Of a stretch of 64,000 bases of DNA, positions 6,121 to 6,270 are shown one piece after another (the stretch's first letter is position 1; each line of letters starts with the position of its first letter). A model generated the notes under the pieces. The model ran no database searches, was not told the DNA's origin, and saw only the letters and a list, made by a program, of their open reading frames with translations. A program made the translations under genes and the position numbers. The stretch comes from an uncultured Clostridium sp. (lineage in GTDB: Bacteria; Bacillota; Clostridia; TANB77; CAG-508), in the NCBI GenBank assembly GCA_930980855.1, contig CAKNIZ010000001.1:946-64945 (forward strand). The letters run 5' to 3'.

Positions 6121-6270
6121 TTTTGCAATGTATATTTAAGATTTCACAGTTCCGCGTAAGCGTTCAAACGAGTCGGAAGGATTCCGGCGAAGTGCGTTTG
6201 GAGCTGTAAAATTCGAAGAATTTTAACAGCGACCGCAAGGAACAAGAAATCTTAAATATACATTGCAAAA
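6121..6270 (+). repeat. Intergenic palindromic element, family T1 (long form), copy a
   Basis: The 25-nt outer arm ttttgcaatgtatatttaagatttc is perfectly complementary to 6246-6270. GC-rich core: gttccgcgtaagcgttcaaacgagtcggaaggattccggcgaagtgcgtttggagc...gaccgcaaggaac. Confidence 0.85.

Follow-up and report, generated by a model that had tools for sequence, protein, structure and literature searches.

The 64,000-nucleotide window analysed here (the whole stretch of contig CAKNIZ010000001.1 from an uncultured Clostridium sp.) contains six copies of a GC-rich palindromic repeat, termed T1 and labelled copies a, b, c, e, g and j. A first-pass annotation had placed all six copies in intergenic DNA with a common orientation and had read them as either a structured RNA or an element resembling repetitive extragenic palindromes (REPs) or miniature inverted-repeat transposable elements (MITEs). 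Direct inspection and alignment A1 bear out the positions, the intergenic placement and the shared orientation (all on the + strand), and no open reading frame (ORF) of at least 80 aa overlaps the six copies. The modular architecture is likewise as described. Conserved outer ends (ATTGTATATT...AATATACAAT, with the variant AATGTATATT...AATATACATT in copy a) are accompanied by AT-rich stems, the sequence of which varies among copies with complementarity kept within each copy, and by a GC-rich core of the form GCAGTTCCGCG..GTTTGGAG..hairpin..CGACAGCAAGGAAC. In copies a, e and j a further module is inserted (module A; TAAGCGTTCAAACGAG-hairpin-CGAAGTGC), with its hairpin closed by T.G, T-A and C-G, respectively. 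Each window copy folds with z = -5.6 to -10 relative to shuffles. Two details required revision: the GC content of the genome is 28% and not 27%, and the boundaries were drawn too narrowly, as the mobile unit extends ~20-35 nt beyond them on each side.

The mobile units around copies a and g both have perfect 8-bp target-site duplications. Copy a (6121..6270, + strand) is the longest form, with module A, a long central hairpin and the outer palindrome TTTTGCAATGTATATT...AATATACATTGCAAAA; it folds at -63.4 kcal/mol (z = -10). Its full mobile unit of 201 bp (6095..6295, +) has a diverged shell with the ends TTAAATCACAAC / TTAAATCAGCAA, and the duplicated sequence TATTAAAT is identical at 6087..6094 on the left and 6296..6303 on the right, where it adjoins the stop codon of recD2. 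(RecD2, MutS2 and DivIVA are all encoded by this bacterium.) Copy g (46815..46901, +) is an 87-nt short form whose core occurs 10 times in the genome. It lies within a 155-bp composite MITE (46781..46935, +) that has shell terminal inverted repeats (TIRs) GTTACAATTCACAG...CTGTGAATTGTAAC at a spacing of 21 nt and is flanked by the 8-bp duplication AAAATTAC at 46773..46780 and 46936..46943. The left shell arm of this composite also contains a putative sigma-70-like promoter, TTCACA-17-TATAAT (46788..46816, +), identified by 11/12 consensus matches only; its -35 element lies inside the TIR, and it would read into T1(+).

Copy c (15510..15609, +) is a medium form that lacks module A and has a long central hairpin. 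It belongs to an inserted block (15500..15641, +) with the ends CTAATAT...ATATTAG, and the 8-nt repeats flanking this block match at 7/8 positions (ATACTTAT at 15492-15499; TTACTTAT at 15642-15649). Copy e (23150..23268, +) is a long form in which the variant junction TTTGTTCCCG replaces GCGTAAGCG; the shell around it (23115..23300, +) has the TIRs GTTATAATTCATAT / ATATGAATTATAAC. Copy b (13387..13477, +) is a short form with the central hairpin GGGACTAGAAGTCCC and only a degenerate shell in its flanks, and copy j (58576..58690, +) is a long form with the module A hairpin CTGGAA-GGT-TTCCAG.

Genome-wide, a nhmmer profile built from the six window copies identifies 123 T1 copies at E<1e-5 in the draft genome of this bacterium (1.545 Mb, 33 contigs, 28% GC), a density of ~1 copy per 12.6 kb. 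Ten of these share an identical 87-nt core. Several copies are situated where contigs end, a placement anticipated for a repeat with recent activity. The copies fall into four size classes: ~45-53-nt cores (80-87-nt elements), ~100 nt, ~116 nt with module A, and 133-142 nt with module A and the long central hairpin. What separates these forms is the gain or loss of entire hairpins at the tips of helices. T1 has no fixed gene neighbour, and a search for phage carriage gave zero matches in the viral contigs searched.

Analysis of the flanks shows T1 to be the interior of a longer element, and approximately half of the copies sit within a shell. The shell TIRs are 14-15 bp long (GTTACAATTCACAGC), and the flanks common to the 87-nt copies read GTTACAATTCACAGC-(20 nt)-T1-(20 nt)-GCTGTGAATTGTAAC; in nearly every recent copy, the shell inverted repeat is found 21 nt from T1. 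When up to 4 mismatches are allowed, 36 copies have the shell repeat GTTACAATTCACAG(C) on both sides and a further 28 have it on one side. The resulting mobile units are non-coding and span 142-203 bp. Among the 36 copies with both repeats, 14 have 8-nt flanks that are identical at 6 or more of 8 positions, five of them perfectly, as compared to 1/36 for a control shifted by 10 nt. Empty shells also occur (C13:34244-34301 and C24:3157-3198).

The shell is not restricted to T1. An IS66-type shell with a different GC-rich structured cargo, 'T2' (..GTAGGAGCGnAGnGCAACGTGCnAG..CGAAGTGAAATGTGAAAG..), is found at C1:172355-172526, C15:37885-38068 and C7:58037-58284. T2-related cargo also occurs in L006, L013 and L023, here inside REP doublets, and is inverted between species (L006 versus L013). 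In three copies, the T1 core is itself flipped within its shell. These core flips and the cargo inversion between L006 and L013 are DNA-level inversions between the arms.

Comparison with relatives shows gain and loss of individual copies. The relative L002 (CALXVF010000014), at 94% nucleotide identity, lacks the blocks that hold copies a and c, and at site c its neighbouring genes abut as TAA-GGAGAG-ATG. Copy b is kept in L002 with 2 substitutions, and copy j is fixed across three further assemblies of the species and varies hardly at all. At the loci orthologous to those of the window, T1 is absent from ten more distant species.

The shell repeat leads to a candidate source of the transposase. 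Of 40 relatives, 12 have it, and 11 of these belong to the same genus. In the same-genus genome G023, a 1952-bp insertion sequence (G023:C10:24594-26545) has inverted GTTACTATTCACAGC at both ends, and the 15-nt repeat is identical. Its single ORF of 547 aa matches Pfam DDE_Tnp_IS66 (PF03050; E = 1.2e-17). A second, decayed copy with 3 stop codons adjoins the same repeat in the same-genus genome G004. In the genome of the window itself, both ends of the insertion sequence are found at contig starts (C6:1-55 and C30:1-54) and a remnant at C4:10870-11002; the complete insertion sequence probably escaped assembly or binning. The organization of the G023 element resembles that of ISDge4 from Deinococcus geothermalis, a member of the ISBst12 group of the IS66 family with a single ORF, the ends GTGACTACTCAGCA / GTAACTGCTCAGCA and an 8-bp direct repeat (PMC12898284). 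The shared features are the single DDE_Tnp_IS66 ORF, the ends GTnACTnyTCA..GC and the 8-bp direct repeat (PMC12898284). The two differ in transposase length (449 aa in ISDge4 versus 547 aa in G023), and the T1 composite differs from ISDge4 in being a non-autonomous derivative, the full insertion sequence being seen only in G023 (intact) and G004. A search for a multi-copy transposase within the genome of the window was unproductive, as self-BLAST yielded only paralogous surface proteins and Rpn-like PD-(D/E)XK genes.

Taken in aggregate, these data make it quite probable that T1 is the folded inner core of non-autonomous mobile repeats, namely MITEs, which are here moved by an IS66-family transposase. 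The MITE branch of the first-pass annotation is upheld by the TIRs, the 8-bp duplications, the identical copies, the empty sites and the cognate IS66-family transposase in a same-genus genome. Its REP branch, which invoked a REP-associated tyrosine transposase (RAYT), is not supported, the single Y1-transposase gene being flanked by a different repeat, GGGACGGTCC; for its RNA branch, covariation is strong yet strictly Watson-Crick. That annotation had also named a match to a known MITE or REP family with a cognate transposase as a finding that would count against its proposal. A MITE with such a transposase was found, although T1's MITE family is itself not previously described.

In this genome and part of the genus, the T1 core with its own AT-rich arms is held at a fixed distance inside the shell, and the shell TIRs are those of an ISBst12-group IS66-family insertion sequence; the DDE transposase of that element would act in trans, cutting the shell ends and pasting shell and T1 into new intergenic sites with duplication of 8 bp. 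The G023-type transposase may act on T1 units in this way and may still be active. Since the window's own assembly lacks an intact transposase and the enzyme is found in only 2 of 40 relatives, we infer both the current mobility and the trans-acting enzyme. The pairing-preserving variation would then represent the upkeep of a palindrome in DNA or single-stranded DNA (ssDNA), by fold-back selection or by repair of arm against arm, and would not constitute proof of an RNA gene. The most likely role of the core is a structure-specific one, exerted in cis, that helps the element to spread or persist.

Known MITEs derived from DDE insertion sequences include Correia/NEMIS of Neisseria, RUP of pneumococcus and bcr1 of the Bacillus cereus group. 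T1 composites resemble these in many respects: they are short (~140-200 bp), non-coding, intergenic and high in copy number; they have TIRs in common with a full-length insertion sequence and a target-site duplication of fixed length; they vary in presence or absence between close relatives; and they have a strong fold-back structure with promoter-like sequence in one end. They differ in their parent, an ISBst12-group IS66 element with an 8-bp duplication, and in an interior that is conserved across genera and is also found with unrelated arms and without the IS66 shell. No IS66-derived MITE was found described in the literature searched.

The history of the core extends beyond that of the shell. 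In species with only 67% protein identity in a neighbouring gene, T1 cores are recognisable and the arms are quite different, and covariance model R1 identifies 8-34 copies in each of three such distant genomes. Across 300 genomes of the order, the covariance model matches cores in 59 genomes and 13 of 43 genera, nearly all in the window's own family, and the counts per genome in this survey are often at least 13. Gut metagenomes (human, shrew and others) yield 110 stretches with the strict core pattern, and viral contigs yield none; a few of the metagenome copies again lie within IS66-type shells. The core consensus, from 48 cores of ~45 genomes (alignment A3), is CCGCG-UA(A)-GCGAYCAAAC-GA-GC-loop-GC-GA-GUGCG-AUUGGAGC-variable hairpin-GCGAC-nnCAAGG. 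It describes a three-way junction with invariant junction nucleotides, in which both inner helices contain the same tandem G.A motif (CGAGC/GCGAG and GGAGC/GCGAC). The arms are lineage-specific (ATTGTATATT here, CTAAAAATATTATGTTT in genus g16 and ..ATATATTGTTT in g13) and often continue into palindromes that are particular to a locus and look like terminator stems. Compared to the IS66 shell, the GC-rich three-way-junction core is far more ancient and has a much wider distribution.

No autonomous partner was found for g16-type arms, and no orthologous empty site was found in genus g13, where the comparison is defeated by the divergence of the species and, in the nearest of them, by a contig that breaks at the element. 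The proposal that arms are re-templated from the target at each insertion, as an inverted duplication, is unsupported, and in the genus of genome G309 the arms are a conserved 17-nt repeat. An apparently empty site in G309 is a deletion remnant and not a virgin target, because one arm and one strand of helix P1 remain. Separately, palindromes of arms only, with g16-type 17-nt arms facing each other across ~26 nt and no core, occur at G236:C32:62486-62545 and G309:C3:41869-41928, and solo arms also occur (for example, at G309:C5:71105). In rabbit-gut relatives (L048, L051, L053 and L065; genomes G042 and G040), several T1-like copies form tandem pairs that lie beside the starts of homologous genes, which suggests a larger segmental repeat that includes the element.

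Several observations weigh against a purely IS66-driven MITE. With respect to the enzyme, the window's own assembly contains no intact transposase gene (an IS66 tblastn search of it gave only a 13-residue remnant), and among 40 relatives the enzyme was found in the two noted above only. With respect to the shell, 59 of the 123 copies have no recognisable shell inverted repeat at up to 4 mismatches. With respect to the core, the interior is conserved across genera and the ends vary, the reverse of an ordinary MITE, where drift affects the interior and spares the terminal repeats; moreover, in other genera the core has different arms, lacks a clear target-site duplication and has no partner that could be identified, and IS66 is unable to explain the spread of the whole family. 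Selfish DNA also leaves unexplained the invariant unpaired and G.A positions and an orientation bias of ~3:1 in three independent datasets. The purine-rich asymmetry of the strands, with the + strand folding better in 93 of 113 distinct copies, and the 11/12 promoter match into T1 complete this list.

In the RNA alternative, T1 would be a functional structured RNA, acting as small RNAs or as cis-acting mRNA elements, with a core selected as RNA that the shell only spreads. Parallels would be the Correia elements processed by RNase III and the ERIC elements with orientation-dependent effects. Conservation of the core over 13 genera with changing arms fits this proposal, as do the invariant junction nucleotides, the two tandem G.A motifs and the loops, which include GNRA-type sequences. 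Covariation also supports it. The pairing-preserving variation that the first-pass annotation described was recovered in alignment A2, where 19 of 36 pairs of the hand-drawn structure have changes on both sides. The A2 alignment contains 78 double-changed cells, as compared to 19.6 +/- 4.1 in shuffles and 4-18 in slid controls; in A3 the corresponding values are 114, 26 +/- 7 and 6-17. The covariation is strong in helices P1, P2 and P3.

The character of this covariation, in turn, argues against RNA. RNA families with comparable covariation usually show G.U intermediates. The stems of T1 are strictly Watson-Crick: in A3, changes on one side number 11 and changes on both sides 114, and helix P1 has 0 G.U in 47 sequences, though A-U and G-C are split 23:23 at one of its pairs. 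Because the pairing is strictly Watson-Crick, covariation is unable to separate RNA from DNA pairing, and a DNA palindrome would explain the pattern no less well than an RNA. A strand-specific excess of G.U was considered as a sign of RNA and rejected, since G.T pairs are equally frequent on both strands (+, 160; -, 177), and A.C mismatches are as common as G.T ones. Folding of the + strand is indeed more favourable, on average by 2.7 kcal/mol, but this advantage arises from G.A mismatches and purine loops and not from G.U, the - strand having 65 C.T 1x1 mismatches. Many of the loops are GNA triloops closed by C-G (GCGAAGC, GCGTAGC, GCGCAGC), which as DNA form extraordinarily stable mini-hairpins. 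Furthermore, Rfam 15 gave no match at the gathering score across the whole window, with copy a giving only chance matches at E up to 10.

Expression and orientation are similarly divided. The putative promoter, TTCACA-17-TATAAT, would read into T1(+) in the youngest subfamily, whereas the long T1 forms have no promoter match, and the lack of a fixed gene neighbour also speaks against a functional RNA. The orientation bias is consistent in three datasets: relative to flanking genes, T1(+) is opposite at 63 and the same at 19 co-directional sites in the window's own genome, opposite at 17 and the same at 8 of 40 loci from other genomes, and opposite at 23 and the same at 8 metagenome loci. This consistency speaks for the RNA proposal, but the purine-rich T1 strand is mostly antisense to the flanking genes, and the strand that is co-transcribed with them is usually the weaker, pyrimidine-rich one. 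The bias most likely reflects loss of those copies that place the more stable strand in mRNA or in the lagging-strand template. Genes are 87% co-oriented with the G-rich strand in this genome. Replication and transcription are collinear (r = 0.98, with two discordant loci only) and inseparable as the cause of the bias. On balance, a functional RNA appears unlikely.

One further possibility would be that the three-way-junction core, and not the TIRs, is the recognised unit, with some factor reading its shape as ssDNA or RNA within a hairpin of otherwise arbitrary sequence. A core recognised in this way would account for its presence in at least 13 genera with invariant junction bases and two tandem G.A hairpins; for arms that are free to change and yet perfectly complementary; for copies centred in other palindromes, whether IS66 shells, REP doublets or terminator-like stems; and for the 3:1 strand bias. 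We regard this proposal as improbable. If true, it would define a mobile or regulatory element that is addressed by its structure, a type for which Firmicutes offer no described example. Known structured sites were compared by eye, and the resemblances to attC sites, dif sites, the ssoA CS-6 motif (TAGCGT/A) and K-turns were rejected, since none fits the register or the order of parts.

Another proposal is that the core is a structure-specific ssDNA site mobilised by an HUH/Y1 enzyme (RAYT-like) or another hairpin-recognising recombinase, comparable to REP/REPIN elements or to the ends of IS200/IS605. This would account for the structure of the arms, and not their sequence, being kept. A Y1_Tnp gene is indeed present (C1:247726-248457), and the strict Watson-Crick pairing, the DNA-stable triloops, the conserved core within arms of free sequence and the lack of a clear target-site duplication outside the IS66 shell are all compatible with it; in addition, the bias follows replication strand and gene strand equally closely, the two correlating at 0.98. 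The gene, however, is flanked by its own repeats (TTAGGGACGGTCCTTAA; ~30 copies, mostly inverted doublets) and not by T1 copies. The stabler T1(+) strand lies mostly on the leading-strand template and not on the exposed lagging-strand template, the bias is weaker in convergent or divergent contexts (17:13) than in co-directional ones (63:19), and no conserved cleavage tetranucleotide was seen beside the arms. Mobilisation of this type is very unlikely, and the RAYT-like enzyme was rejected as the mobiliser of T1 since this single gene has its own REP-like repeats. T1 shares with REP/REPIN-RAYT systems the GC-rich imperfect intergenic palindromes, the nested or doublet arrangements and a RAYT-like gene in the genome. 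It differs in that the gene here is flanked by GGGACGGTCC, in its greater length, in its three-way junction, and in its inverted repeats and 8-bp duplication, both of which REPs lack.

The weakest reading, in which T1 would consist of plain intrinsic terminators or of AT-rich palindromes alike by chance, has in its favour their location 20-40 nt past stop codons and the outer arms of other genera, which often resemble terminator stems with an A-run and a T-run, but, in line with the first-pass annotation's own remark on simple terminators, it is already refuted by the copy number, by a conserved core of 45-100 nt common to the 123 copies and by the target-site duplications, with the empty sites, the stems without a following U-tract, the T-run 5' and A-run 3' of the core (the reverse of a terminator) and two scans that detected no terminator-like site all pointing the same way.

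The IS66-moved MITE that we favour can also be placed among repeats of other bacteria. BOX elements of Streptococcus pneumoniae (boxA-boxB-boxC) are similar in their optional modules, stable predicted structure, intergenic location, more than 100 copies and debated function. They differ in that BOX modules are arranged in a row with no known transposase or duplication, whereas T1 modules are hairpins nested at helix tips, within a composite whose inverted repeats and duplications are clear. ERIC/IRU elements of enterobacteria and Yersinia, which are ~127-bp imperfect palindromes co-transcribed with genes, are similar in form and in having an orientation-dependent effect on mRNA, which for T1 is suggested by the 3:1 bias only; they have no sequence relation to T1.

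As the composite has both the ends and the duplication length of its parent, a direct test of transposition is possible. The T1 family explains a sizeable share of the intergenic DNA in a little-studied family of uncultured, small-genome gut Clostridia, as well as the breaks of draft assemblies at its copies, and its conserved core is widespread in animal gut metagenomes. For the discovery of RNA motifs, T1 offers a caution: strong covariation is found in what behaves as a DNA palindrome, and the near absence of G.U intermediates may be diagnostic.

Other repeats were encountered in the same genome. A second family, TTTTnAATTAGGGACGGTCCTTAAnnnAAAA, has ~30 copies, mostly as inverted doublets, and is found in the window at 35650-35659 (+) and 35721-35730 (-). 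One doublet (C1:247704 and C1:248530) lies on either side of the genome's sole Y1_Tnp (RAYT-like) gene (C1:247726-248457; an ORF of 243 aa), which is the classic REPIN/RAYT arrangement; other doublets enclose T1 or T2 (C8:37620/37843 and C1:172339/172604). A third GC-rich repeat, ATTCCCGGAGCAGGGACGCTCCGTACGGCTCnCT..CGCTCCCCTTG, surfaced in the search for GGGACGGTCC with one mismatch allowed. It has ~15 copies genome-wide, two of them in the window at 21412 (-) and 58505 (+), and adjoins T1 copy j.

Among the genes, a 436-aa gene at 11910-13220 and its upstream region (window 11923-13345) are absent from L002, and three tandem copies of ~33 nt (AAAAAGTCGTTAGAAAAATGTGTAA..) lie upstream of this gene. 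Paralogous genes of ~285-315 aa (C9:18029-18886, C14:29590-30441, C20:16816-17763 and C1:119879-120826) appear by eye to resemble the Rpn-family PD-(D/E)XK 'putative transposase'. Finally, most long repeats in the self-BLAST of the genome belong to a family of membrane-anchored surface proteins with the N-terminal motif ..GGITGTLE(S/V)LDTSDA(T/N)A.PEDIL.GKTAYV.G.KITG, members of which are encoded in the window at 1-612, 881-2146 and 29774-31456 and on contigs C32, C8, C20 and C4.

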